Virus record (IMG/VR): IMGVR_UViG_3300027419_000056
Coordinates: 1 to 40,447 of that record
Length of the DNA stretch: 40,447 nt
From: a virus
Taxonomy: Duplodnaviria; Caudoviricetes
Reading direction: 5' to 3' (one strand)
A program made the translations under genes and the position numbers. The notes beneath the pieces were generated by a model. It ran no database searches. It saw only the letters and a program-made list of their open reading frames with translations, and was not told where the DNA came from. Positions 7,844 through 37,431 of the stretch are shown here, piece after piece. How positions within the stretch are numbered: the stretch's first letter is position 1; the number at the start of each line of letters is the position of its first letter.

Positions 7844-8839
7844 ATGGATTACTCAAAAGCAACAGCAAATTTAATAGACAGAATGTGCAAAAACGTAGAA
7901 CGGGAAGATTTTACGTTAGATAAAAAACGAGGCGCTGAGGCCATTCTCAAAACCTATGATTTATTTGATTTACAACGACCAAAAAAAATTATATGGGTTA
8001 AAGATATTTTTGACAAGCGATTTGACGATGCCGCAGGGTCCGCATGGTCCGCAGGGTCCGCAGGGTCCGCAAGGTCCGCAAGGTCCGCAAGGTCCGCATG
8101 GTCCGCAGGGTCCGCAGGGTCCGCAAGGTCCGCAGGGTCCGCAGGGTCCGCAAGGTCCGCAAGGTCCGCAGGGTCCGCAGGGTCCGCAAGGTCCGCAAGG
8201 TCCGCAATAGATTATGACTTTGATTGGTATGTTGTAGAGCATGAGTATTGCAAAAACAGAAAAGACAATCCGGGAGATAAACCAAATGAGAATGACAGAA
8301 AATATCTCAAGTATTCTGAACTGCTCATGCAGGCAAAAGAATATGGTGTTGGCTATCGTGTAGAATGGGAAGACACACTGTATTTAGCACCTACTCCACT
8401 GGTTAAAATTGATGAAGAAAATAGATTCCATTCAGAAACATCCCCTGCTATCAGATGGAAAGGTGGAAAAGAATTGTATTTTTGGCACGGAACAAATGTA
8501 AGCCAGAAAATAATCAAGTATCCTGAAAAGCTGACAAAAAAAGACTGGATGGATGAAACAAACATTGAAATAAGACGTTGTATTCAAGAAAAGCTAGGAG
8601 AAAGGTTTGTTAAACTCCTTAGAGGAAAAACAATCAATAAGGGAATACGAGGCGAGTTGATTGAAATAGACCTGAAAGACGACCCTGATAAAGTGGCTCA
8701 CTACGTTAAAGTAAAGGATTCCTCAACAGAGAGAGAATACTACTTACGAACTCCACCAACAATCATAGATGCAGATGAAAGTGTGGCGTGGACGTTCGGA
8801 TTTGAGAGTAAACAGTATAAACCAATTGTAGAAACATAA
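7844..8839 (+). CDS. DUF6745-like protein with internal (Ser-Ala-X)19 repeat
   Basis: C-terminal [25 protein letters not shown] and [14 protein letters not shown]...VAWTFG pattern; followed by the usual RQGDV partner gene. Confidence 0.75.
8037..8207. repeat. Tandem 9-bp repeat GGTCCGCA[A/G/T] x19
   Basis: Directly visible; only the ninth base varies. Confidence 0.97.
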
Positions 8840-11144: not shown

Positions 11145-11268
11145 AAACTGCTGAATAGAGAGTATGTCAGATTCTTTTTATCAATCATTATGCGATAAGG
11201 AGAAAAACATACAAACATATTTAGAAATACATCCGTATAAAATTGTACATAAGAAAGGGGTGAATCAT

Positions 11269-11499
11269 ATGCAAACGAGTCCTGTAATTGAACAGGAAAT
11301 GACATTTCCACAAGCAATAGAACAGCTTATCGTTGGAAAAAGTGTCACTCGGAAAGAGTGGCAAGATGAAGCATTTTATGGGGTAGTAAAAGATGGACAG
11401 CTACAGCTTCATAAACCAGATGGAAAGTTTTATCAATGGATTATATCCGATGGCGACCTTATAGGAACTGATTGGATTTGTATAAAAATTGTTAGTTAA
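11269..11499 (+). CDS. DUF2829/Tad2-like protein (probable start 11269)
   Basis: MTFPQAIEQL..GKSVTRKEW ... W.IS..DL.GTDW signature; AAAGGGGTGA RBS. Confidence 0.7.
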   Translation: MQTSPVIEQEMTFPQAIEQLIVGKSVTRKEWQDEAFYGVVKDGQLQLHKPDGKFYQWIISDGDLIGTDWICIKIVS

Positions 11500-25098: not shown

Positions 25099-25128
25099 TT
25101 GACATGCAATAGTTTGTTTCTATATCGT
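25099..25128 (+). promoter_or_regulatory. Late-type promoter for the capsid gene TTGACA-18-TATCGT
   Basis: Shared spacer motif TGCAATAGTTT. Confidence 0.7.
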
Positions 25129-25217: not shown

Positions 25218-26333
25218 ATGGCTTCAGCGTATTCAACAAAAGTTGCAGAAGGTTTTTCGCAACGCCTTTTAAAAGAGGTATATGAAAAAAACCTCGCCGA
25301 TTATATCGTAAACCGAGATTATGAAGGCGAAATCAATGGTGTTGGTTCAAAACTAAACATTTTGAATTTTGCACGTATTTCAGAAAAGACATATGCAAAT
25401 GCAGCGATGTCAGCCGACTCACTGTATGAAAACAATGCCGTTCTTACAATAGATCAATTAAAATCCTTCTATTGGAAAGAAAAGACATATGCACGATGGC
25501 TTTCCTACATTAAAAATCCACATGCAACTATCGTTGCTCAGAAAGCAGATGAGCGCGCAAAGAACATGGATGAATATATCCTTGGATTCTATGGTGATGT
25601 TGCATCAGGAAATAGAGTCGGAACAGATTATACAACCGGTACAGTGACCGTTACCGCAACGACAGGTGCTGTTGTTGGTTCAGGTACGACATTCACTGCA
25701 GCTATGGTTGGTCGTGGATTTAAAGCAGATGGACACACAAAATGGTATCGGGTAAAGACATACACAAGTGCAACAGAGATTGTCATTGAAGATGATTCTG
25801 ATGACAACACGTCTGCATACACTGGTGGAGCAATTGCAGGTGGATCAACATATACCATTGAAGCTGCAACGCCAGTCGCAATTACCACAAGCACGCTTTT
25901 GCAATATATCGCTGCTTTGAAATTGAAATTGGATAGCGCAGAACGATATGGTTTGTCAGCAGTTCCTGAATCCGATCGTTGGTTAGTCGTTCCGCCAGAA
26001 TTTGAAGATTTAGTAGTTCGGGCATCCGGAGTTGCACTCCACGTTCCTGAAGCCTACACAGATTTAGTGCAAAAAGGCTTTATCGGAATGTTGCTTGGAT
26101 TCAAGATTTTCAAGACCAATAGATTGACAGGAGATAATACGGATGGATGGAGAATTCTTGCAGGTCACAAAAATTGGATGACATTTGCAGAAAAACTCTT
26201 GGAAGCAGGAATGGAAGAAGATTTGACCGGTGACTTCGGATCTGCATATAAAGATCTGTTTGTCTACGGAGCAAAAGTGACGGATGCACGCCGACACTTT
26301 GCAGCAGAGTTGTACGCAACATTTACACTCTAA
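25218..26333 (+). CDS. Major capsid protein (HK97 fold) with ~80-aa insertion
   Basis: VNRDYEGEI...G, LTIDQ.K, VP..DRWLVVPP, G.IG.LLGF.I, LFVYGAKV motifs. Confidence 0.9.
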   Translation: MASAYSTKVAEGFSQRLLKEVYEKNLADYIVNRDYEGEINGVGSKLNILNFARISEKTYANAAMSADSLYENNAVLTIDQLKSFYWKEKTYARWLSYIKNPHATIVAQKADERAKNMDEYILGFYGDVASGNRVGTDYTTGTVTVTATTGAVVGSGTTFTAAMVGRGFKADGHTKWYRVKTYTSATEIVIEDDSDDNTSAYTGGAIAGGSTYTIEAATPVAITTSTLLQYIAALKLKLDSAERYGLSAVPESDRWLVVPPEFEDLVVRASGVALHVPEAYTDLVQKGFIGMLLGFKIFKTNRLTGDNTDGWRILAGHKNWMTFAEKLLEAGMEEDLTGDFGSAYKDLFVYGAKVTDARRHFAAELYATFTL

Positions 26334-26356: not shown

Positions 26357-26389
26357 TCTATGGGGAAGCCTAAAAAACTTCCCCATAGA
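26357..26389 (+). terminator. Strong hairpin after the capsid gene (no U tract on +; attenuator or stabiliser)
   Basis: 12-bp perfect stem TCTATGGGGAAG/CTTCCCCATAGA. Confidence 0.55.
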
Positions 26390-26404: not shown

Positions 26405-27316
26405 ATGGCTACTTTTGAACTGAAATCACAATTACCAAAATCAACACAAGATGAATTAGATCGTGTTGAAGCAATCTCAAGTGCAGTGAGGTCAACAAAA
26501 GAAGCAGCATTTTTGACATCTCTTACTCCGTACAGAACAAATGTTGTCCAACGATATGATACAGATGGATCAACAATACTGGAAGCAGAAGGAAATACGC
26601 TTCCTACGGGATACGAGGGGTTCAAACAGGGAGCAATCTTCAGAGATCTTGATAAGACAGGAATGAATATCTATATCAATACAGGCGATGAAGACGCTGC
26701 GGTATGGTCATTATTAGGTGGAGAGGTTGTTTCATCTTCCCCATCTCTAAGCCCATCAGTATCTGCATCACTCAGCCCATCTGTAAGTGCATCTCGTTCA
26801 GCAAGCTTGTCAGCATCATTGAGTGCATCACTCAGCCCATCGGCTTCAACAAGCCCATCAGTATCGGTAAGCTTGAGCCCGAGTGCATCGCAGAGCCCAT
26901 CAGTATCGGTAAGCTTGAGCCCGAGTGCATCGCAGAGCCCATCAGTATCGGTAAGCTTGAGCCCGTCATTATCAGGAAGTGTCTCAGCATCAGTATCTGT
27001 GTCAGTATCAACGAGTGCATCACCAAGCTTGAGCCCAAGTGCATCAAGCTCACCATCACACAGCATTTCGCCAACACCATCAGTCTCTGTAAGCTTGAGT
27101 CCAAGTGTTTCTGTGAGTGCATCGCCATCAGTCTCGGCAAGTACATCAGTCTCATTGTCACCAAGTTACTCAGCAAGCTTGTCAGCATCAGTGTCTGCAT
27201 CAAAAAGTGCATCACTCAGCCCAAGCGTCTCAGTATCATTGTCTCCGTCAGCATCAACGAGTCCTTCGGTCTCGGCAAGTGCTTCGGATTCACCATCACC
27301 AAGTTTCCCATTCTAA
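26405..27316 (+). CDS. Putative capsid decoration protein with ~190-aa Ser-X/Pro mucin-like tail
   Basis: Follows MCP; N-domain G...GAIFRD.D....YINTG....W; residues 110-303 have Ser at nearly every second position. Confidence 0.75.
26852..26965. repeat. Exact 42-bp tandem repeat x2.7 (encodes [14 protein letters not shown])
   Basis: Units start at 26852, 26894, 26936. Confidence 0.9.
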
Positions 27317-27327
27317 GCTATTGCTGA

Positions 27328-27357
27328 TTGAAGGAAGTGTAATGAGTATGATAAAAT
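27328..27357 (+). promoter_or_regulatory. Putative leaderless promoter of the glycosylation cluster (TTGAAG-18-TAAAAT, extended -10)
   Basis: ATG 6 nt downstream; same geometry as the other promoters. Confidence 0.5.
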
Positions 27358-27363
27358 TATCAT

Positions 27364-28173
27364 ATGCTTTCCGTTATCATTCCTTCACGTAATGAGAAGT
27401 ACCTTCAAAAGACTATTCTTGATGTCTTACAAAAAGCAGTTGGTGATATCCAAGTTATCGTTATCCTTGATGGATATTGGTGTGACATAAAGGAATATAT
27501 AAATGATAAGCGTGTCACCTATATTCATTTCTCTGATGCTCGTGGTATGCGGAACGCCATCAACTCCGGTGTTTCTATTGCAAAAGGCGCATATATCCTC
27601 AAATGTGATGCCCATTGTATGTTTGAGCATGGGTTTGATACAAAGTTGATAGAAAGTTGCAAAGAAAAAACGATTGTAGTGCCTCGTAGATATGCACTTG
27701 ATCCTGAAAAGTGGGAATTGATAGATAATCCTAAGTATCCAATAGACTATATGTATCTTTCCAGTGATTTTCATGGTGTTCCATGGGAAGAGAAGAATAA
27801 GGATGAAAAACTGAAAGAAAAGAAGATTGATGACTTAATGAGTGCGCAAGGATCGTGTTGGATGATGGAAAAACGCTACTACAACGAGCTTGAACTACTG
27901 GATGAAGAGAGTTATGGCACATTCTATAATGAGTTTCAGGAAATAGGACTCAAATGTTGGCTATCCGGTGGACGTGTCATTGTAAACAAGAATACATGGT
28001 ATGCGCATTGGCATAAGCCAAAAGAGGTTGGACGTGGCTATTCACTTGAAAAAGGATTGCAGGAACAAGCTGAATCGTTTACTAAGAGATGGATGGCTAC
28101 AGGTTGGAGAAAACAGAATCTTCCTATCACGTGGCTCATAGAAAAGTTTGCACCGGTTCCAACATGGAGGTAG
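27364..28173 (+). CDS. GT-A glycosyltransferase (GT2/GT27-like, DxH motif)
   Basis: LSVIIPSRNE, VIVILDG, KCDAHC, EIGLKCWLSGG...YAHWHK. Confidence 0.9.
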   Translation: MLSVIIPSRNEKYLQKTILDVLQKAVGDIQVIVILDGYWCDIKEYINDKRVTYIHFSDARGMRNAINSGVSIAKGAYILKCDAHCMFEHGFDTKLIESCKEKTIVVPRRYALDPEKWELIDNPKYPIDYMYLSSDFHGVPWEEKNKDEKLKEKKIDDLMSAQGSCWMMEKRYYNELELLDEESYGTFYNEFQEIGLKCWLSGGRVIVNKNTWYAHWHKPKEVGRGYSLEKGLQEQAESFTKRWMATGWRKQNLPITWLIEKFAPVPTWR

Positions 28174-28175
28174 AT

Positions 28176-28679
28176 ATGAAAAATAGAAGAGACATTGCAA
28201 AATTTTGTAATAGACATGGATTCAAAATCGGTGTTGAGATAGGTGTATCCGAAGGAAAGAACGCAAAAGTATTTTGTGAAGAGATACAAGGACTCCATTT
28301 TCTAGGTGTTGATCCATATCTTGATCATCCATCCATGGCCATTACTGCAAAAAAGAATCTCCAAGGATATGATGCGACTATTCTTCAAATGACAAGCCTA
28401 GATGCTTCCTCAGAGGCTACAAATAGATTCTACGATTTTGCAATCATAGATGGAAATCATACATTTGCCAATGCCATGCTTGATATTCTTCTTTGGACAA
28501 AGAAAGTAAAGGTTGGTGGCCTTATTATCTGTCATGACTATTACCATTTTCACGGATCTGGTGTTATTGAGGCAGTTAATGCGTATGTACAAATAAATAA
28601 GATAAACCTGCACTTAACAACCGGTGATTCAAGATCTCATGATGACAAAATGCCAACTGCATGGTGGGTAAACATATGA
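28176..28679 (+). CDS. Class I SAM-dependent methyltransferase (Methyltransf_24-like; probable start 28176)
   Basis: GVEIGV..G, GVDPY, DFAIIDGNH, VKVGGLIICHDY. Confidence 0.88.
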   Translation: MKNRRDIAKFCNRHGFKIGVEIGVSEGKNAKVFCEEIQGLHFLGVDPYLDHPSMAITAKKNLQGYDATILQMTSLDASSEATNRFYDFAIIDGNHTFANAMLDILLWTKKVKVGGLIICHDYYHFHGSGVIEAVNAYVQINKINLHLTTGDSRSHDDKMPTAWWVNI

Positions 28680-29446
28680 ACGATACAACAATCATCTACT
28701 ACACATGCAACTATCTTGAAGAGAAGAATCCGTATTTCCTTCAACAGACAAAAACACAACTTCATAAGGCTGCGGGTGATATCCCAATTATCAGTGTCTC
28801 GCATAAGCCGATGAAAGATATGGGAGAGAATATCTGTCTTGGTGATATCGGAAGATCGCATTTGAATATCTATCGCCAGATACTCATAGGTGCAAAAGCA
28901 GCAACAACGAAGTATGTTGCCATGGCAGAAGACGATATCCTCTATTCATATGAACACTTCCATTTTGAGCCATATGTAAAACAGGAGTTTTTGGATAATG
29001 ACTATTTTTTATACGACATGGCAAAAGTATCATTATTTACATGGACAAAACCGACAATGTTTTCATTCAGGACAAAGAGACGGGTAGTCAATCAACTTAT
29101 TGCTCCAAGGAAAATGCTCATTGAATCGCTTGAGGAACGGTTTGCACGCCTAGAAGTGCTAAAAAAGAAATGGCCAGAAGAAAAGATTATCAAATACTGG
29201 GGAGACCCCGGAAGATATGAGGATATTTTAGGTGTGACTATTCGTCCATGCTATGAGTTCTATTCATGGATACCATCTATTGTTTTTTCTCATGAATACG
29301 CCTATGGATATGAGTTCAATCAGGGAAAGAAGAAAAAACTAGGAGACTTACGCATTATTGAACTTGCCGATTGGGGAAAAGCATCTGATGTACTAAAATT
29401 ATATACAGATGACGATATTTATATAAAGAATCAAGATGAAACCTAA
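28676..29446 (+). CDS. Putative GT-A glycosyltransferase (second type; probable start 28676)
   Basis: YVAMAEDDILY acidic motif; paralogous to the C-terminal half of 29933..31582. Confidence 0.75.
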   Translation: MNDTTIIYYTCNYLEEKNPYFLQQTKTQLHKAAGDIPIISVSHKPMKDMGENICLGDIGRSHLNIYRQILIGAKAATTKYVAMAEDDILYSYEHFHFEPYVKQEFLDNDYFLYDMAKVSLFTWTKPTMFSFRTKRRVVNQLIAPRKMLIESLEERFARLEVLKKKWPEEKIIKYWGDPGRYEDILGVTIRPCYEFYSWIPSIVFSHEYAYGYEFNQGKKKKLGDLRIIELADWGKASDVLKLYTDDDIYIKNQDET

Positions 29447-29936
29447 TTTTGTATTCAAAGAAGAACACTATGCTACGCATCTCCCGATGCTTATTCGTTG
29501 TGTGGAACTATCTGATCCGGAATTACCTATCTTAGAGCTTGGTATTGGGTATAGTACGTTTATTCTTGATATGCTTTGTAAACAGAATGGTCGTGAGATA
29601 TTTTCCTATGAGAATGATAGAAAATGGCATGGAAAGTTCCTTGAATTCTATCAAATGAATCATAAGGTTATCTATACGGAAGATTGGGACAATATTATTA
29701 AGCGCCATTGGGGTGTTGTTCTCATTGATCATAGACCAGCAAAGAGACGGCATATAGATGCACTGAAGCTCAAAGATAGTGCAGACTACATTATTCTCCA
29801 TGACTCAGAGCCTGAGATAGACAAGTTTTATGGATATAAAGGGATATATAAGCACTTCAAATACGTCCATCACTATACAACTTGTAAACCTAATACAACT
29901 GTCGTATCAAATTTTAAGGACTTGAGGAATCTATGA
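29436..29936 (+). CDS. Putative class I SAM-dependent methyltransferase
   Basis: ILELGIGYST, SYEND..W, VLIDH, IILHDSE. Confidence 0.7.
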   Translation: MKPNFVFKEEHYATHLPMLIRCVELSDPELPILELGIGYSTFILDMLCKQNGREIFSYENDRKWHGKFLEFYQMNHKVIYTEDWDNIIKRHWGVVLIDHRPAKRRHIDALKLKDSADYIILHDSEPEIDKFYGYKGIYKHFKYVHHYTTCKPNTTVVSNFKDLRNL

Positions 29937-31582
29937 AACACTATGACTTGTCCGTTATCATAACAGCCCGTAATGAAGAGTTTTTGTCTCGTACTGTAGA
30001 GGGTGTTATTGCAAATAAGCGGGGAAATACGGAAGTCATTGTCATTTGTGATGGAAACTGGCCAAACCCTGCAATTACAGATCATCCAGACGTTACCATG
30101 ATATATCACTCAGAATCAATTGGACAACGTGCTGCAATCAATGAAGCTGCACGACTATCCACAGCGAAGTTCATCATGAAGCTTGACGCACATTGCGTTG
30201 TAGATGAGGGTTTTGACGTAAAACTTATGGCAGATTGTGAATACAATTGGACAGTTATTCCTCGGATGTATAATCTGCATGCTTTTGATTGGGTTTGTTC
30301 CAGTTGTGGATATAGAAAGTATCAGTCACCAACGCCGGAAAACCTGAAATGCGAAGAGTGCAAGAAGGAACGAGTGATGAAGCGGGAAATTATCTGGAAG
30401 CCACGATGGAATAAACGATCAGATTTTATGCGATTTGATAGCGACTTGCACTTCCAATACTGGGGAGAGCTTGGTAAACGTCCAGAGTCACAAGGAGAAC
30501 TTGCAGAAACCATGTCATTTGTTGGTGCATGCTTCTTTATGCATAGGGATTACTATTGGGAACTTGGTGGATCAGAGGAAGAATGGGGCTCGTGGGGGCA
30601 ACAAGGGACAGAATGGGCTTGCAAGACATGGCTTTCAGGTGGAAGAGTTATGGTAAACAAAAAGACATGGTTTGCTCACCTATTTAGGACTCAGGGTGGA
30701 GACTTTGGATTCCCCTATCCTCAATCAGGTAATCAGGTAGACCATGCACGGAAGCGGTCTAAGGAGTTTTTTAAGGAAGGAAAATGGAAAGGGGCAAAAC
30801 ACAATTTGGATTGGCTTATCCGTAAATTCTATCCTATACCCGGATGGGAAGGATATAAAATAGACACTGTAGTGCCCTTAGAGCCATCAAAACCAACAAA
30901 AGGCATAATCTACTACACAGACAATCAAGTGCCTTTAAAACTTGGACATATGTGCCGTAAGGAGATTCTAAAAGCGGGTTTACCAATTGTCAGTGCATCA
31001 CTCAAGCCTATGGATTTTGGAAAGAACATTGTCCTAGGACTTCCACGTGGATACGTGGCATACCACAAGCAGATTCTTGCAGCACTTGAGGCATCAACAG
31101 CAGACATTATTTTCTTTTGTGAACATGATGTCCTCTATCACCAGTCGCATTTTGACTTTACTCCGCCAAGGAAGGACGTGTACTACTATAACTTCAATTG
31201 GTGGAGAGTTCGGTGTACCGATGGCCATGCAATTCACTATGATACGCATCAGGTCAATTTCATTGTCGGGTACCGAGATCTTTTAATTGCACACTATAAA
31301 GAAAAGGTACGAAGGATAGAGGCAACAGGCTTTACTATGGCAATGGGATTTGAGCCCGGATGCAACAGTCGTGCAGAACGAATAGATGATGTAAAGGCAG
31401 AGCGATTTGATAGCGCATTTCCTAACTTAGATTTGCGGTATGGAGGCAATCTTACCAAGAGCCGATGGAAACAGGAAGAATTTAGAAATGAGCGAAGCTG
31501 TAGAAACTGGAAAGAGACCAGTTTAGACAAGATTGATGGATGGGAATTACCAATTGACACATTCACAAAATATAACAAATAG
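29933..31582 (+). CDS. Two-domain glycosyltransferase (GT2/GT27-like + second GT-A domain) with Zn-ribbon insertion
   Basis: LSVIITARNE, KLDAHC, CSSC..CEEC, WGQQGTEWACKTWLSGG...FAHLFR; second domain IFFCEHDVLY. Confidence 0.9.
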   Translation: MKHYDLSVIITARNEEFLSRTVEGVIANKRGNTEVIVICDGNWPNPAITDHPDVTMIYHSESIGQRAAINEAARLSTAKFIMKLDAHCVVDEGFDVKLMADCEYNWTVIPRMYNLHAFDWVCSSCGYRKYQSPTPENLKCEECKKERVMKREIIWKPRWNKRSDFMRFDSDLHFQYWGELGKRPESQGELAETMSFVGACFFMHRDYYWELGGSEEEWGSWGQQGTEWACKTWLSGGRVMVNKKTWFAHLFRTQGGDFGFPYPQSGNQVDHARKRSKEFFKEGKWKGAKHNLDWLIRKFYPIPGWEGYKIDTVVPLEPSKPTKGIIYYTDNQVPLKLGHMCRKEILKAGLPIVSASLKPMDFGKNIVLGLPRGYVAYHKQILAALEASTADIIFFCEHDVLYHQSHFDFTPPRKDVYYYNFNWWRVRCTDGHAIHYDTHQVNFIVGYRDLLIAHYKEKVRRIEATGFTMAMGFEPGCNSRAERIDDVKAERFDSAFPNLDLRYGGNLTKSRWKQEEFRNERSCRNWKETSLDKIDGWELPIDTFTKYNK

Positions 31583-31612
31583 TATAAAATTATAACCATA
31601 AAGGAGATAACT

Positions 31613-32692
31613 ATGATTCCTGTCTTACGTCCTGATATAGATGAACAAACAACAAAAGATCTTATTGATGTTCTAAAATCCGGTTGGTGGGGACAGGGGC
31701 CAAAAACATTTGAATTTGAAAAGCAATTTGCTGAATACGTTGGCGCAAAATATGCCATAGGATGCAATTCCGGAACTGCTGCGCTTGATCTCTGTTTAAA
31801 AGCATATAACATTAAAGGTGGCGAACTTATTACCACACCATTTACGTTTGTTGCAGATGCGATTGTTGGCGAATGGAATGATATGGATGTGACATTTGCC
31901 GATATTGATGAGGATTCTTTTTGTCTTGATCCAAAGTCTGTTGTGATAACAGATAAGACAAAGGCAATCATTACTGTTGATTCACATGGACGTTTAGCTG
32001 ATATTGACGGTCTACGAAAAAAGTTTGACGGACTTATCATAGAAGATGCAGCGCATGCTATGTACACTCCCGGAGCAGGAAAGAAAGCAGATATTACTAT
32101 CTGGTCATTCCAAGCGGTCAAGTCTCTGCCAACTGGAGATGGAGGAATGATTACAACAAATGATGACAAGATATATGAACGACTCCGAACACTTACATGG
32201 CTTGGCGTTGAAAAGAATACATTTCAACGGGTTGGAGCAAAACGATATACATGGGATTATGACATTACACAGGCTGATGGGCTCAAGGCATATATGAACG
32301 ATCTTACAGCTGTTATTGGACTCGGACAACTTCGGAGGATTGAAGAACTTACAGCAAAACGAAGAGCAGTACAAGCAGTCTACAACGAAGCGTTTAAGGA
32401 TATAAAACAGATTAAGATTCCCATGTACTCACACACATGTCAGTATTACACTATGAAATGTGAACGGCGTGACGAACTCTCTGATTATCTTGCCTCAAAT
32501 GAGATTGCAACAAGCGTACATTTTAAGCCATTGAATATGATGACATACTGGAAAAAAGCAGAGAAACGAGAACTCAAGGTAAATAACAAGGTATGGACAC
32601 AATTATTGAGTCTTCCGGTATTTAATACAATCACATGGACAGAAGTAGAGAAAATTATTCGTTGCGTCAAGGAATTTTATGAAACTAAATAA
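31613..32692 (+). CDS. DegT/DnrJ/EryC1/StrS-family PLP-dependent sugar aminotransferase
   Basis: NSGTAAL, IIEDAAHA, SFQAVKSLPTGDGG. Confidence 0.95.
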   Translation: MIPVLRPDIDEQTTKDLIDVLKSGWWGQGPKTFEFEKQFAEYVGAKYAIGCNSGTAALDLCLKAYNIKGGELITTPFTFVADAIVGEWNDMDVTFADIDEDSFCLDPKSVVITDKTKAIITVDSHGRLADIDGLRKKFDGLIIEDAAHAMYTPGAGKKADITIWSFQAVKSLPTGDGGMITTNDDKIYERLRTLTWLGVEKNTFQRVGAKRYTWDYDITQADGLKAYMNDLTAVIGLGQLRRIEELTAKRRAVQAVYNEAFKDIKQIKIPMYSHTCQYYTMKCERRDELSDYLASNEIATSVHFKPLNMMTYWKKAEKRELKVNNKVWTQLLSLPVFNTITWTEVEKIIRCVKEFYETK

Positions 32693-33305
32693 CATTTTGC
32701 TTACTGGAGGATCCGGTCTTCTTGGGAAAGAATTGAGAAAATATATACCATTCACTGCACCAGATCATAAGGAAATGGACATTTGTGATGCACAGACAAT
32801 GGATAAGTACAAAGATAGCGATACGGTCATTCATTGTGCAGCATATACGGATGTTATAAAAGCGGAAAAAGAGAAACGGAAATGCTATTGGACAAATGTC
32901 ATAGGCACATACAACATCAGCCAAGTATTCAAGGATAAGTATGTTGTGTTCATTTCCTCAGAATATGCAGTCAATCCGGTCAATTGGTATTCTTATACGA
33001 AACAATTGGCAGAGAATATCATTAAGGCGAACTGTAAAGACTATCTGATCATCCGCACCTTGTTCAAAGCGAATCCATTTCCGTATGAATATGCATTTTT
33101 TGATCAAGAAACCTATGGAGACTACGTAGATGTCATAGCGCCTATGGTCGCAACGGCTATCCTTTGTCATGAAAAAGGAATTATCCAGATAGGAACAGGA
33201 AAGAAAACAATCTTTGAACTTGCTAGACGGACAAGACCGGAGATTAAGGCTATTTCTGTTGATGATATAAAAGATGTGAAGTTGCCAAAGGAGGCATATG
33301 TCTAA
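32679..33305 (+). CDS. RmlD-like NAD(P)-dependent nucleotide-sugar reductase (short form)
   Basis: LTGGSGLLG, HCAAYTDV..AE, FISSEY, YSYTK (YxxxK). Confidence 0.88.
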   Translation: MKLNNILLTGGSGLLGKELRKYIPFTAPDHKEMDICDAQTMDKYKDSDTVIHCAAYTDVIKAEKEKRKCYWTNVIGTYNISQVFKDKYVVFISSEYAVNPVNWYSYTKQLAENIIKANCKDYLIIRTLFKANPFPYEYAFFDQETYGDYVDVIAPMVATAILCHEKGIIQIGTGKKTIFELARRTRPEIKAISVDDIKDVKLPKEAYV

Positions 33306-34083
33306 AACAGTAGCAATTGTTGGAATCGGATGGGTCGGAAAACACATGAATACTCTTTTTCCAAGTGCCTATATCTATTCAAATGGGAAACATGGAGAAA
33401 TAGGGAAAAAAGAGGAAGTAAACAAGTGTGATGTTGCATTTGTCTGTGTACCGTCCCCTAACATCGGAAAAGACAGACTGGATACCTCCTACGTAGAAGA
33501 AGTTGTTGCATGGTGCACATGTCCGCTTATCGTTATCCGTTCTACTGTTAATCCCGGAACTTGTGACTATTTAGCTTCAAAATACAAAAAACATATTGTC
33601 ATGGAGCCGGAATACTTAGGCGAAACACCAAATCATCCAATGTTTGATGCTCGTACACGACAATTCATCATTATTGGTGGTAATCCAAAAGACAGACGGG
33701 AACTTATTAACCTCTATACAATTGTTTACAATGCCAACACTATTATCCGTCAGGTAACGGCATATGAAGCTGAGGTAATTAAGCTCTCTGAAAACCGTGC
33801 AATCCTATATAAAGTCATGGAATGCCAAGAACTCTATGATGCATGTGAAAAGGCCGGTGTAGACTACTACACAGTCAGAGACGCAGTGTATAGCGATGAT
33901 CCACGGTTTAATCTTTGGTGGACATTCATCATGGCGGAAAAACCAAGGGGATGCATATCAAAATGTATTCCAAAAGATCCGTATGCATGGTGTGCATGGG
34001 CTGAAAGCTTTGGCTATGAGCCAATAATGACACGGACACTGCTTGCAAAGAATGAAGAATGGATCAGTTCTTATAGCAAATAG
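33298..34083 (+). CDS. UDP-glucose/GDP-mannose dehydrogenase family protein (no C-terminal domain)
   Basis: IVGIGWVG, FVCVPSP, IRSTVNPGT, PEYLGE, AEVIKLSEN, CIPKD. Confidence 0.88.
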   Translation: MSKTVAIVGIGWVGKHMNTLFPSAYIYSNGKHGEIGKKEEVNKCDVAFVCVPSPNIGKDRLDTSYVEEVVAWCTCPLIVIRSTVNPGTCDYLASKYKKHIVMEPEYLGETPNHPMFDARTRQFIIIGGNPKDRRELINLYTIVYNANTIIRQVTAYEAEVIKLSENRAILYKVMECQELYDACEKAGVDYYTVRDAVYSDDPRFNLWWTFIMAEKPRGCISKCIPKDPYAWCAWAESFGYEPIMTRTLLAKNEEWISSYSK

Positions 34084-34096
34084 TCCTAGTATTCCG

Positions 34097-34126
34097 TTGC
34101 CTTCCGAGAGTTTTATAGTCTAAGCT
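34097..34126 (+). promoter_or_regulatory. Late-type leaderless promoter TTGCCT-18-TAAGCT
   Basis: Shared motif; ATG 6 nt downstream. Confidence 0.7.
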
Positions 34127-34132
34127 ATTTAT

Positions 34133-35794
34133 ATGGCATATACATCGGATTTGATTCCCGACATGACGTCAAATACAGAACCTTCGGGCGTTGCTTCTGC
34201 GAGCGATGATTTAGGTGGAGGATATCCTGCATATAGAGCATTTGATGATTATAATGTTGGAGATGCTGGAAATGGTTGGGCATGTTCTGGAACTTCTGGA
34301 TGGGTACAATATCAATTTACTTCTTCTCATGTCATTACGCAATATACGGTAACAAATAGAGACGCTGGTGCATTATCTCGTTCTCCTAAGTCATGGACAT
34401 TCAAAGGTTCTAACAATGGGACTGATTGGACTACGTTGGATACTCAATCAAATATTACCGATTGGGCTTCTACAACAATAAAACACACATATCCAATTAC
34501 AAACTCCACTGCTTATTCTTATTATCGGATGAATATAACTGAATCAAATGATGCATCTTATGTTGGAGTCGGTGAAATTGAAGCCATGGAAACAATTAGT
34601 CCATCATCTTCTGTATCTTTAAGCCCATCAACTACACCATCTTTGTCTCCGTCAATAAGTCCAAGCTCTTCTCAAAGTCCAAGCGCCTCTATTTCTTTGT
34701 CACCTTCACTATCGCCATCTTCTAGTCAATCGCCTTCATTGTCCATTTCATTATCACCTAGTGTCAGTAAAAGCTTATCTCCTTCTATTAGTGCATCACT
34801 TAGTATCTCATTATCGCCGTCCGTCTCAGAAAGCGCATCACAGTCACCAAGTTTAAGTCAAAGTTTGTCTCCAAGCGTTAGTGTTTCTCTTAGCCCATCA
34901 GTTTCAGTATCATTAAGTATTAGCCGTTCTCCAAGTTCAAGTGCATCTAGTTCTCAATCGCCAAGTTCGTCAATATCATTGTCCCCTAGTGTAAGTGAAT
35001 CTCTTAGTCCGTCTATAAGCACTTCATTGTCTCCAAGTATATCTGAATCATTAAGCGTCTCGTTGTCTCCGAGCTTATCTATATCACCAAGCCCGTCATC
35101 TTCACCGAGTCCAACAGAGGTATCATCAGAAAGCTTGTCGTTATCTGCTAGCCCGTCATCTTCACCGAGTGCATCACAGAGCCCGAGCTTATCTGTATCT
35201 CTTTCTCCATCAGTTTCTGTCTCGTTGTCATTTAGCGCAACGATGTCTGCCTCTTTGTCTCCATCCCTCAGCCCATCCCTCAGCGTCTCGTTATCGCCAT
35301 CAGTTTCTGTTTCACCAAGCCCGTCAGTATCTGAATCATTGAGCCCGTCAGTATCGCCAAGCGCTTCCCAAAGCCCGAGTTTAAGCATAAGCTTATCGCC
35401 TAGTGTTAGCGTATCGTTATCGCCATCAGTGAGTCCATCAGTCAGCGTTTCATTGTCACCGAGTATCTCTGTATCACCGTCTCCCAGCGTTTCTGAATCA
35501 TTGAGCCCGTCTTTAAGCCCATCAATCTCTGAAAGCGTTTCAGAATCATTATCAATAAGTGCAACGCCTTCACCAAGTCCGTCTTTATCAGTTTCCTTAT
35601 CGCCATCAATAAGCGTTTCACTTTCGCCATCATTATCACCATCATTATCTATTAGTTTGTCTCCGTCGTTATCGGTATCTCCATCTCCTTCACCACAGAT
35701 ATACGAAGACACTTATGAAGCAAAAAATAACACGTATACAGATAAATACGAGGTAAAGAACAATACCTATATAGCAAAATATCGGGAATGGTAA
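34133..35794 (+). CDS. Discoidin (F5/8 type C, CBM32-like) domain + ~365-aa Ser-X/Pro mucin-like stalk + Tyr-repeat C-terminus
   Basis: AYRAFD, WVQYQF, PKSWTFKGSNNGTDWTTLD, YYRMNITE; residues 156-521 are alternating Ser. Confidence 0.85.
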   Translation: MAYTSDLIPDMTSNTEPSGVASASDDLGGGYPAYRAFDDYNVGDAGNGWACSGTSGWVQYQFTSSHVITQYTVTNRDAGALSRSPKSWTFKGSNNGTDWTTLDTQSNITDWASTTIKHTYPITNSTAYSYYRMNITESNDASYVGVGEIEAMETISPSSSVSLSPSTTPSLSPSISPSSSQSPSASISLSPSLSPSSSQSPSLSISLSPSVSKSLSPSISASLSISLSPSVSESASQSPSLSQSLSPSVSVSLSPSVSVSLSISRSPSSSASSSQSPSSSISLSPSVSESLSPSISTSLSPSISESLSVSLSPSLSISPSPSSSPSPTEVSSESLSLSASPSSSPSASQSPSLSVSLSPSVSVSLSFSATMSASLSPSLSPSLSVSLSPSVSVSPSPSVSESLSPSVSPSASQSPSLSISLSPSVSVSLSPSVSPSVSVSLSPSISVSPSPSVSESLSPSLSPSISESVSESLSISATPSPSPSLSVSLSPSISVSLSPSLSPSLSISLSPSLSVSPSPSPQIYEDTYEAKNNTYTDKYEVKNNTYIAKYREW

Positions 35795-35796
35795 TG

Positions 35797-35826
35797 TTGC
35801 CTTCCAATAGTTTATTCTTCTATTCT
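35797..35826 (+). promoter_or_regulatory. Late-type leaderless promoter TTGCCT-18-TATTCT
   Basis: 35796-35827 identical to 39182-39213 (32 bp). Confidence 0.8.
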
Positions 35827-35832
35827 TGAGGT

Positions 35833-37431
35833 ATGGCTATTTATGAAATAAAATCATGTCGTGGAGGATTATCTGATTATGAAGATAAAGGTATTCCCGG
35901 CTCATTCAAGTTTGGAGCGAATCTAAACATAAGAAAAGTACAAGATAGTATCTCGTGCAATCAAGCACTCGTAGATGAAGGATTACTAGGTAGCAATTCC
36001 CCTTCTGCGTCTGTTTCTCCATCTTTAAGTGCGAGTGTTTCTCCATCTTTGTCGCCAAGTGCGAGTGTAAGCCCGACACAGAGCCCGTCATCTTCTGTTT
36101 CCCTGTCGGCTTCAACAACACCGTCAGTCTCTGTGTCACTGAGCCCATCAACAACGCCATCATCCTCTGTTTCTCCATCTCCATCCCCGTCTGCAGGACT
36201 ATCAACAGTCTTTGAGGATTTAATACGGTATTTCGTGAAGGCATCAGATGGATATACCTATGGGTTTGGAAGCACGGGATATATATATAGACGTGATTCT
36301 GATGCATTTTGGCAAAGGTCATACAAAGATGCACTAGGAGAAATAAAAGGAGCAGAAGAGAAGCCGTCATCCAGTGGAAAACTATGGCTCTATTGGGCAA
36401 CCAATACAACATTAAAAAGAAAAGAGATAGGGGGATTGTCTAACTGGAATGATGTGGAGATTGTAGCCCAGAATCTTCAACCAGACGTTCCACACACCAT
36501 GAAGCAGGTAGGCGGATCACTTATGATCGCAAATGGAAGTTATATTGCCATGGTAGGATATGACGATTCCTATACAAATGAAGCATTGGACATGATACCG
36601 GGGAATATTGCAAAGACTATGGTAGAACGAAGCGGACAACTTATTGTTGGCTGTTATCGTGAAGGCGAATCAACTATGGGAGTCAATGCAGCAATAGACG
36701 CAGAATATCCATTGGCACAGATAGGAAATGATGGAGAACTCCATTTTGCCGATATGGCCAATACCATCCCTATCAAACGCTTTCCCGGAGGAGGTATGGC
36801 AAATACTGGTGGCGTAACAAACGAAGTTGATCAGGCAAATTTCTTTCAGTGGGAACAGACGGCGGATAGTTGGATTGATAAACAGTCTGTAGGAAATCTT
36901 TCTCTTTGGGCTATATATGATGCAGATACGGGAAAAGGTGGTATTTATAGCTATGGACGAAAAAATAAAAATCATCCGGTCACAATGAATCTTGAATACC
37001 AGTTTGATGCCGATGAATTAGGCGCTCTGATAACGGTAGAGGGCACAACAATCGTAAGCTACAGAGATGGAACATCATTTGGCGTAAAGGCCGTAGACGC
37101 AAGCACAAAGGCTCAGGGAGTGTATGAAGGACTGGATTTTAAAGCACCGATGAAAAAGAATGAAGAAATTACAGAATGGAAGCGACATGAAGTCTTTATC
37201 GCTCCCCTTCCAAGCGGTACATCCATTCAATTCTACTATCGTTTGAATAAAACTGGTGGTTGGGTGCTTGGCCGTACTGCATCAGGAGAAACAGCATTTA
37301 GTATTGCCAATGCTATGAAGGCTACATTTGTCATTAACGGTCAGGGTGAGATATTTGAGCCTAAGTTAGTGTTGAATCCAAGCTTTAATGTTGCTCCTGA
37401 AGTATTTAGGCAACGCACATATTTTGACTAA
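35833..37431 (+). CDS. Putative tail hub/nozzle (beta-propeller-like) protein with ~68-aa Ser-X/Pro insertion
   Basis: N-terminal GGLS.....G.F..G.N.NIR pattern of podovirus tail proteins; beta-rich; Ser tract at residues ~54-121. Confidence 0.65.
   Translation: MAIYEIKSCRGGLSDYEDKGIPGSFKFGANLNIRKVQDSISCNQALVDEGLLGSNSPSASVSPSLSASVSPSLSPSASVSPTQSPSSSVSLSASTTPSVSVSLSPSTTPSSSVSPSPSPSAGLSTVFEDLIRYFVKASDGYTYGFGSTGYIYRRDSDAFWQRSYKDALGEIKGAEEKPSSSGKLWLYWATNTTLKRKEIGGLSNWNDVEIVAQNLQPDVPHTMKQVGGSLMIANGSYIAMVGYDDSYTNEALDMIPGNIAKTMVERSGQLIVGCYREGESTMGVNAAIDAEYPLAQIGNDGELHFADMANTIPIKRFPGGGMANTGGVTNEVDQANFFQWEQTADSWIDKQSVGNLSLWAIYDADTGKGGIYSYGRKNKNHPVTMNLEYQFDADELGALITVEGTTIVSYRDGTSFGVKAVDASTKAQGVYEGLDFKAPMKKNEEITEWKRHEVFIAPLPSGTSIQFYYRLNKTGGWVLGRTASGETAFSIANAMKATFVINGQGEIFEPKLVLNPSFNVAPEVFRQRTYFD

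Follow-up and report, generated by a model that had tools for sequence, protein, structure and literature searches.

The window analysed here, the 40,447-nucleotide virus record IMGVR_UViG_3300027419_000056 taken over its whole length, carries an eight-gene cassette (27364-34083) between its capsid and tail genes and, beside it, three proteins with long tracts in which serine stands at every second residue, (Ser-X)n. Sequence comparison and structure prediction make it likely that this phage-encoded cassette performs cytoplasmic mucin-type O-glycosylation of serine tracts on the virion. Because enzymes resembling mucin initiators sit by three likely tract-bearing particle proteins, it is likely that the phage covers its own particle in sugar-bearing bristles. 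The tracts and enzyme motifs are observed, no cassette protein has a membrane segment, and tracts and enzymes are jointly present or absent in relatives; the enzyme fold is predicted. An earlier sequence-only reading had already proposed that the cassette glycosylates virion tracts. That proposal gains strong, though indirect, support from enzymes whose nearest kin are protein-Ser/Thr O-transferases and from the joint presence of tracts and enzymes, while the virion location of the tracts is inferred.

GT27-like enzymes and alternating serine tracts

By sequence and predicted structure, the protein encoded from 27364 (class a; genes are named by their first position) and the N-terminal half of that from 29933 (class b) are polypeptide GalNAc-transferase (ppGalNAc-T, family GT27)-like and not generic GT2 enzymes, a relationship that the sequence-only reading overlooked. 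A Protein Data Bank (PDB) sequence search with the N-terminal half of 29933 returned ppGalNAc-Ts in 14/14 matches, including one listed merely as 'Glycosyl transferase' (8uhv), which is Toxoplasma GalNAc-T3. The 27364 protein alone gave four matches, the best two to bacterial GT2 N-termini and the other two to ppGalNAc-Ts. A 19-sequence family profile matched ppGalNAc-Ts across positions 4-262 (best E 9e-16, with ppGalNAc-Ts filling the top 12 rows), whereas other GT-A enzymes matched over the first 100 positions only. For the predicted model of 27364 (pLDDT 91.9), all 31 of the Foldseek matches listed were ppGalNAc-Ts. Compared with two ppGalNAc-Ts, the model gave Z 26.9 and 25.3, with a root-mean-square deviation of 2.6 over 262 residues; the best non-GT27 fold among 48,161 chains compared reached Z 18.9.

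Motif classes were drawn from 212 unique relatives, with alignment columns that we take, from alignments and recall, to correspond to GalNAc-T2 residue numbers. Across 125 class a rows the Asp of D-x-H is kept in 125, the His in 124, the distal His in 122 and an invariant Glu in 125. Class b (91 rows, four of them partial) has D-A-H and the distal His in 87/91 each, the rest being gaps, and keeps W-G and H-x-F-R. The WGGE motif and the H-x-F-R loop are thus not found in one chain but divided between the two classes. In GalNAc-T2, manganese is coordinated by Asp224, His226 and His359, Trp331 is one of the residues central to catalysis, and Pro-x-Pro motifs are recognised with a contribution from Phe361 (accessible text of PMC4432651). 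The DxH motif is said to be confined to GT27 and GT60, both of which O-glycosylate Ser/Thr of polypeptides (PMC7185993, in the part available). Because of the fold, the profile, the D-x-H and distal His and this confinement, the class a and b enzymes most probably work like polypeptide N-acetylhexosamine (HexNAc)-transferases. They nevertheless lie outside canonical GT27, having no lectin domain, no anchor and motifs spread over two chains: 27364 encodes a 269-aa single domain with no Pfam lectin match, and the maximum 19-residue hydropathy values for the enzymes were 1.53 and 0.93.

Of 7,999 candidates scored, 6,469 matched at E 1e-5, which points to thousands of small soluble relatives, though ordinary GT2 enzymes will be part of this count. 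With the N-terminal half of 29933 as the sole glycosyltransferase (GT) domain query, tblastn gave no match at E 1e-5 in 50,697 phage records; isolated relatives were likewise found for this domain in no case and for the capsid protein only as distant matches. A complete 364-kb phage (G004) encodes a transferase (L329:721-2217, minus strand) that matches animal ppGalNAc-Ts at E 3.5e-45 over residues 8-283, far nearer to them than the window's enzymes; its genome also has a (Ser-X)n protein (L291), and the transferase bears on the origin of GT27.

The serine register of the three tracts (Table 1) exceeds the best of 10,000 composition-keeping shuffles, which placed 62, 112 and 26 serines in register for tracts 1, 2 and 3, respectively. 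Proline never occupies the serine register (0/89) and occurs only at odd offsets from serine. These counts agree with the earlier claim of serine at every second residue with regular proline in three genes. The tracts are not microsatellites, because all six serine codons are used and DNA repeats are short only; the same codon usage, together with tracts in dozens of relatives, rules out a microsatellite or assembly artefact. Contigs of a possible source run (a groundwater metagenome), which are not independent, showed no differences over the listed pieces; no RNA dataset was listed among the runs with the sequence, which carries no information about expression. Over the tracts of all fetched loci, redundant copies included, serine fills 29,687 of 30,222 register positions, and the X residues are Pro (28%), Ala (21%), Val (12%) and Leu (10%), with Ile also among the commonest. 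Tract 1 holds an exact 42-bp duplication (26852-26965), one copy of which is missing from contigs of two other runs; the length of the tract is therefore variable, with the frame kept.

Table 1. Positions of the features discussed, in window coordinates unless a locus is named (aa, amino acids; ORF, open reading frame)
Feature	Position	Strand	Remarks
Promoter-like motif, all copies	5419, 20004, 23902, 25099, 34097, 35797, 39183
Promoter-like motif upstream of major capsid gene	25099..25128	+
Major capsid protein	25218..26333	+	PHROG 267, E 5.6e-19; phylogenetic anchor
Bristle protein	26405..27316	+	109-aa N-terminal domain (fibre-like or tailspike-like cargo elsewhere), then (Ser-X)n tract only
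(Ser-X)n tract 1	26732..27304	+	ORF 26405-27316, aa 110-300; 191 aa, 97 Ser; register 95/96
GT27-like transferase, class a	27364..28173	+	D82-x-H84, H215, E190; no lectin domain, no membrane anchor
Methyltransf_24 S-adenosylmethionine methyltransferase	28176..28679	+	accessory, 10/16 cassettes
GT-A-fold protein, unnamed family	28676..29446	+	invariant E-x-D; 16/16 cassettes
Putative small methyltransferase	29436..29936	+	label of the sequence-only reading; 9/16 cassettes
Two-domain transferase	29933..31582	+	GT27-like class b (DAH, WG-x-Q-G, H-x-F-R) plus paralogue of 28676
DegT/PseC-like pyridoxal phosphate aminotransferase	31613..32692	+	accessory, 5/16
Short RmlD-like reductase	32679..33305	+	accessory, 3/16
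Nucleotide-sugar dehydrogenase	33298..34083	+	261 aa; N-terminal and central Pfam domains only; 11/16
Promoter-like motif common to portal and capsid genes	34097..34113	+
Fibre-like protein	34133..35794	+	F5/8 type C (discoidin) domain, 365-aa tract, C-terminal YxDKY repeats
(Ser-X)n tract 2	34598..35692	+	ORF 34133-35794, aa 156-520; 365 aa, 187 Ser; register 178/183
Promoter-like motif ahead of hub gene	35797..35813	+
Conserved putative tail hub protein	35833..37431	+	in-frame tract insertion after residue ~53
(Ser-X)n tract 3	35992..36192	+	ORF 35833-37431, aa 54-120; 67 aa, 33 Ser; register 31/34
Patescibacteria-like chromosomal enzyme pairs	L358, L359, L360-L361, L362-L363, L364		near UvrD, KsgA-type methylase, GAPDH, PGK; four by large (Ser-X)n proteins

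Joint occurrence of tracts and enzymes in relatives

Loci were taken from the best 80 of 316 capsid relatives and the best 79 of 433 GT relatives, with 74 hub loci, 22 further loci and 28 loci from metagenome-assembled genomes (MAGs). The starting set was 149 loci whose capsid gene is near-full; removal of 54 with short downstream DNA and of 16 that were at least 95% identical left 80, the window included. The sequence-only reading had suggested looking for co-occurrence in related phages: enzyme and tract are both present in 49 of the 80 loci, both absent in 31 and discordant in none, over three changes on the tree.

We give more weight to the tests based on the hub insertion, on unrelated clusters and on tract DNA. 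In the hub, the tract is inserted in frame at a single site, and the same site is empty in cassette-less relatives. Among 50 evaluable hubs (18 of 68 were dropped for missing upstream DNA), 34 combine the tract with the cassette, 11 have neither, five have the cassette without a hub tract, and none has the tract without the cassette. Locus L057 is nested in the tract-bearing clade (support 99), falls among tract-bearing phages on both trees, and lacks both cassette and hub insertion; it is an 8-kb fragment that covers the entire capsid-to-hub interval. GT-bearing clusters that share no capsid, portal or hub homology with the window carry tracts on other proteins in 30 of 35 cases, and the five without tracts are all fragments (4-78% complete). 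The whole records of ten cassette-less relatives, three of them at least 90% complete, gave no match with PF00535 (five) or the family profile (five).

Scanning for tract DNA returned 70 loci; removal of 12 giant-virus loci and the requirement of a long tract in an ORF of at least 300 aa reduced these to 21 contigs. A class a or b gene lies in the locus in ten of them and elsewhere on the contig in two (L274; L282, which is the contig of L103), and two further contigs have divergent GT27-like genes (L280, L291), giving 14/21 overall. One of these, L280 (14022-17444), from a tailed phage with unrelated structural genes, has two more divergent D-x-H transferases next to three tract proteins.

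The core of the cassette was defined from 25 phage clusters that show the capsid gene and a full hub, by BLAST with the window's genes, which misses divergent replacements. All 16 clusters with a cassette encode the class a and class b enzymes, the two unnamed GT-A domains, the bristle tract and one or more further tracts; the hub tract is present in 13 of them. The remaining nine have neither a tract nor any cassette gene.

Genes of the same kind occur outside phages. Among 401 genomes searched from the phylum to which a Parcubacteria-titled MAG belongs, the enzymes were found in six: once on a phage-like contig, four times beside housekeeping or other cellular genes and once in an unclear setting. 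(Ser-X)n proteins adjoin the cassette or its split parts in four of the five non-phage or unclear copies. Woesebacteria proteins are 63-64% identical to 27364, phage and cellular copies are intermixed on a quick tree (five changes), and one whole cassette-bearing relative fell into the bin of a Saccharibacteria MAG. The host could plausibly be one of the Patescibacteria. Capsid relatives without cassette or tract (L232-L244, L248, L250 and L254; 53-61% identity) lie on long Acidobacteriota MAG contigs and are apparently prophages.

Gene setting, proposed mechanism and competing explanations

The window is a whole phage genome of 40.3 kb with a 127-nt terminal repeat, 100% complete by the record's own estimate, in which terminase, capsid protein and amidase genes were recognised. 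The eight cassette genes abut or overlap and have the same third-position GC as the structural genes. A promoter-like motif, TTG(A/C)C(A/T)-N4-A(G/T)AGTTT, occurs in seven copies against 0.95 expected and precedes the portal, capsid, 34133, hub and 39219 genes, among others. Five copies lie ~20-30 nt ahead of a start codon, in the manner of leaderless late promoters, and in relatives the motif is kept ahead of the same (structural) gene classes. No copy falls between 25116 and 34096, and the motif ahead of the capsid gene likely drives the capsid gene, the bristle gene and the cassette. Sigma-70 and terminator scans gave chance level only. A strong hairpin, terminator-like on the minus strand, lies between the capsid and bristle genes (26357-26389).

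Gene order, the shared motif, a PHROG match and the cargo of a domain suggest that the three tract carriers are likely virion proteins. The fibre-like 34133 protein matches the PHROG 'tail protein' at E 7.8e-33, and its YxDKY repeats are kept in the gene ahead of the hub whether or not tracts are present. The N-terminal domain of the bristle protein is present in 238 clusters and carries a pectate-lyase or beta-helix domain, typical of tailspikes, in 3 of 54 representatives scanned. In the window's clade it carries the tract alone, and the tract is therefore a payload; in L226 and L246 the domain is present without tract and without GT. PDB sequence searches with this domain and with the hub returned nothing significant and PHROGs held no match for the domain; an Atlas search gave only unnamed viral clusters, with fibre-anchor families appearing only under 0.9. 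The earlier 'tail hub' label likewise found no informative database match and is kept on gene order.

Likelier gene starts within the cassette are 28176 and 28676. The predicted model of 28676 (pLDDT 93.9) has GT-A matches (best E 1.8e-6, TM under 0.5); the protein has no family match and nothing significant in a PDB sequence search, and it is likely an elongating transferase. Because 28676 is predicted to have the GT-A fold and the C-terminal half of 29933 is its paralogue, there are four GT domains in three genes, as previously listed. The GT2-type matches of 27364 and of the N-terminal half of 29933, the DegT, RmlD-like and dehydrogenase genes and one methyltransferase of that list also stand, whereas the second methyltransferase (29436) has no Pfam or NCBIfam match. 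The suggestion that the phage makes its own amino/uronic, methylated sugars holds at best in part: such a supply would be partial and optional, because the DegT and RmlD-like genes are present in only 5/16 and 3/16 cassettes and no dehydratase or nucleotidyltransferase was found among 40 ORFs scanned.

In the mechanism we propose, the capsid promoter would drive late co-expression of the bristle gene and the cassette. Class a and class b, which always occur together, would prime tract serines with HexNAc from a host nucleotide sugar. They may do so singly or jointly, because the Glu of the animal active site is retained in class a and its Trp, Phe and Arg in class b. Elongation of the glycan would then fall to the pair of GT-A domains from the unnamed family, the optional methyltransferases, aminotransferase, reductase and dehydrogenase would diversify it between phages, and stiff bristles on head and tail would shield the particle or mimic the host surface.

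Several observations weigh against this reading. The reading draws on gene sequences and predicted structures. Identity to ppGalNAc-Ts is only 14-20%, ordinary GT2 enzymes score too, and fold likeness alone does not fix the acceptor. Class a mostly has F in place of the Trp, and H-x-H-K without the Phe-Arg; in class b, the Glu is replaced by Gln or Met. The three tree changes behind the 80-locus comparison provide only two independent pairs (sign test p 0.5), some of its GT-positive rows are so by construction, having been found with a GT query, and neighbouring genes can be lost as one block. In distant relatives, 61 of 66 longer representatives of the bristle N-terminal domain bear other cargo and no tract, and the bristle protein is placed on the virion only indirectly, through context and the tailspike-like cargo of a few representatives. 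The amino-sugar genes are optional (5/16 and 3/16 cassettes). Finally, 7 of the 21 tract contigs yielded no such enzyme: five fragments, one 58-kb contig that was partly searched, and G001. The last is a complete genome of 40,861 bp with a tract of ~100 aa in a fibre-like protein (L349:9416-10930) and no GT27-like or Pfam GT match among 29 ORFs scanned; it counts as a genuine counter-example if the enzyme does not come from its host.

Other explanations were considered. The tracts could be unmodified structural elements (amphipathic beta-strands, spacers, or ice- or mineral-binding faces), with the enzymes acting elsewhere in the virion, for example on capsid side chains; we regard this as improbable. 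With 28% Pro in the X positions, long beta structure should be broken. Moreover, cassette-less relatives build the same hub without a tract, and wherever the enzyme occurs tracts recur on unrelated proteins. These points are set against the X residues, which are mostly Pro, Ala, Val, Leu and Ile and so follow an amphipathic-strand pattern, the tract without enzymes in G001, and the glycosylated capsid and tail tube proteins of mycobacteriophages (PMC12363180, in its accessible text).

It is distinctly improbable that the cassette comprises auxiliary genes that remodel the host surface (an O-antigen-like glycan or surface proteins) with the tracts as linked passengers. Chromosomal copies of the enzyme pair do exist, in 4 to 5 of the 401 genomes, and nucleotide-sugar genes of Patescibacteriota phages have been read as aids to host adhesion (accessible part of PMC12911398). 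No tyrosine integrase was found in the genome, however, the cassette has no membrane segment and is flanked by capsid and tail genes, hubs lack the in-frame tract where the cassette is absent, and four of the five non-phage or unclear copies are themselves beside (Ser-X)n proteins.

That the tract proteins are glycosylated but act off the particle, in the infected cell or as released decoys, is very unlikely. The bristle and hub proteins have no direct match to a solved virion protein and the N-terminal domain of 34133 is lectin-like, but the gene order, the motif shared with portal and capsid genes, the 'tail protein' match of 34133 and the tailspike-like cargo borne elsewhere by the 26405 domain all point to the virion. 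Modification of phage DNA is barely credible: DNA-hypermodifying phage glycosyltransferases exist (bioRxiv 10.1101/2023.12.21.572611), but the nearest folds are protein O-transferases, the 40 ORFs scanned include neither a recognised base-hydroxymethylating enzyme nor a DNA polymerase, and the linkage to tracts would be left unexplained.

Two further features lie away from the cassette. A DUF6745 protein (7844-8839) contains a 9-bp tandem array (8031-8206) that reads in frame as Ser-Ala-x repeats and in an overlapping frame (7956-8210) as collagen-like Gly-Pro-Gln, and a Tad2-like anti-defence domain (Pfam E 2e-8) is encoded at 11164-11499.

Comparison with known glycosylation systems

Mucin-type initiation by GT27 is treated as eukaryotic. 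The phage enzymes resemble eukaryotic ppGalNAc-Ts (CAZy GT27; PDB 1XHB, 2FFU, 8V9Q, 8UHV) in predicted catalytic fold, in the D-x-H with a distal His and in the WG-x-x and H-x-F-R motifs, here spread over two paralogues, and the likely phage acceptors, like the mucin Ser/Thr/Pro tracts, are Pro-rich stretches of hydroxyl amino acids. They differ in their low identity, in the absence of a ricin lectin domain and membrane anchor and in their predicted cytoplasmic location; unlike mucin acceptors, the phage tracts are strictly alternating and almost Thr-free. Given GT27-like enzymes, the earlier 'mucin-type' label fits better than had been argued for it. PF11397, which we take to be the family model of GT60, had no match in the genome at E 0.1. 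According to the accessible text of a 2014 review, no equivalent GALNT was known in bacteria (PMC4202792). GT60 polypeptide alpha-GlcNAc-transferases occur in Dictyostelium and Trypanosoma and also in prokaryotes (PMC7185993); they share with the phage enzymes the DxH motif and the lack of a lectin domain, and one member is soluble and cytosolic (PMC8724618, as far as both sources are available).

Phage-encoded O-glycosylation of virions is known from mycobacteriophages Che8, Corndog and Myrna (Freeman et al. 2023, as described in available parts of PMC12363180, PMC11652166 and PMC12582341). As in the window, which is known from genes alone, glycosyltransferases are encoded in a tailed phage genome; there, however, the capsid and tail tube proteins are themselves modified, and those parts mention no dedicated acceptor tract. 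As regards homology to the Che8 gp110 or Corndog gp38 enzymes, the tblastn search with the N-terminal half of 29933 matched none of the 50,697 phage records at E 1e-5.

With the SRRPs (proteins built on serine-rich repeats) found in streptococci and staphylococci (Fap1, GspB, SraP, PsrP) the window shares a long serine-rich acceptor clustered with transferases. SRRP acceptors have alternating serines, and GtfA/GtfB are GT4 enzymes of the GT-B fold. The analogy drawn by the sequence-only reading thus extends to the acceptor pattern and not to the enzymes: the modelled phage transferases are GT-A and GT27-like, and the acceptors are Pro-rich phage proteins. No Pfam or NCBIfam match to a GtfA/GtfB pair, SecA2/SecY2 or a wall anchor was found in the genome, and there were no signal peptides. 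In SRRP systems the cytosolic GtfA/B prime the serine-rich acceptors as a two-protein unit and elongation is variable (PMC8498110, in its accessible text). Gtr-type lysogenic conversion differs again, as neither a tyrosine integrase nor a membrane flippase or transferase was found and the GtrB-like match is weak and N-terminal only (E 0.008).

Virion glycosylation by phages is therefore known already; the new element is an enzyme-plus-tag design, a GT27-like pair together with serine tracts. Subscription journals and supplements aside, we found no published description of GT27-like phage enzymes with grafted serine tracts, in agreement with the earlier statement that acceptor tracts grafted onto several virion proteins are undescribed in phages. 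In the broadest form, towards which we lean only slightly, a widespread group of phages and some ultra-small Patescibacteria would run a lectin-less cytoplasmic mucin system. In it a GT27-like pair would recognise a transferable (Ser-X)n tag, placed in any virion protein, and build bottle-brush glycans with swappable tailoring genes, and the self-made glycocalyx would mimic or evade the host surface, as a prokaryotic and viral branch of mucin-type O-glycosylation. If so, a family that comes with a genetically encoded tag as its acceptor would inform the origin of GT27 and GT60 and offer a compact tool for dense O-glycan brushes in bacteria, and many 'auxiliary' sugar genes of phages would be re-assigned from host metabolism to virion building. 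As the enzyme and its predicted substrate are encoded next to each other, purified proteins allow a direct test of the claim.

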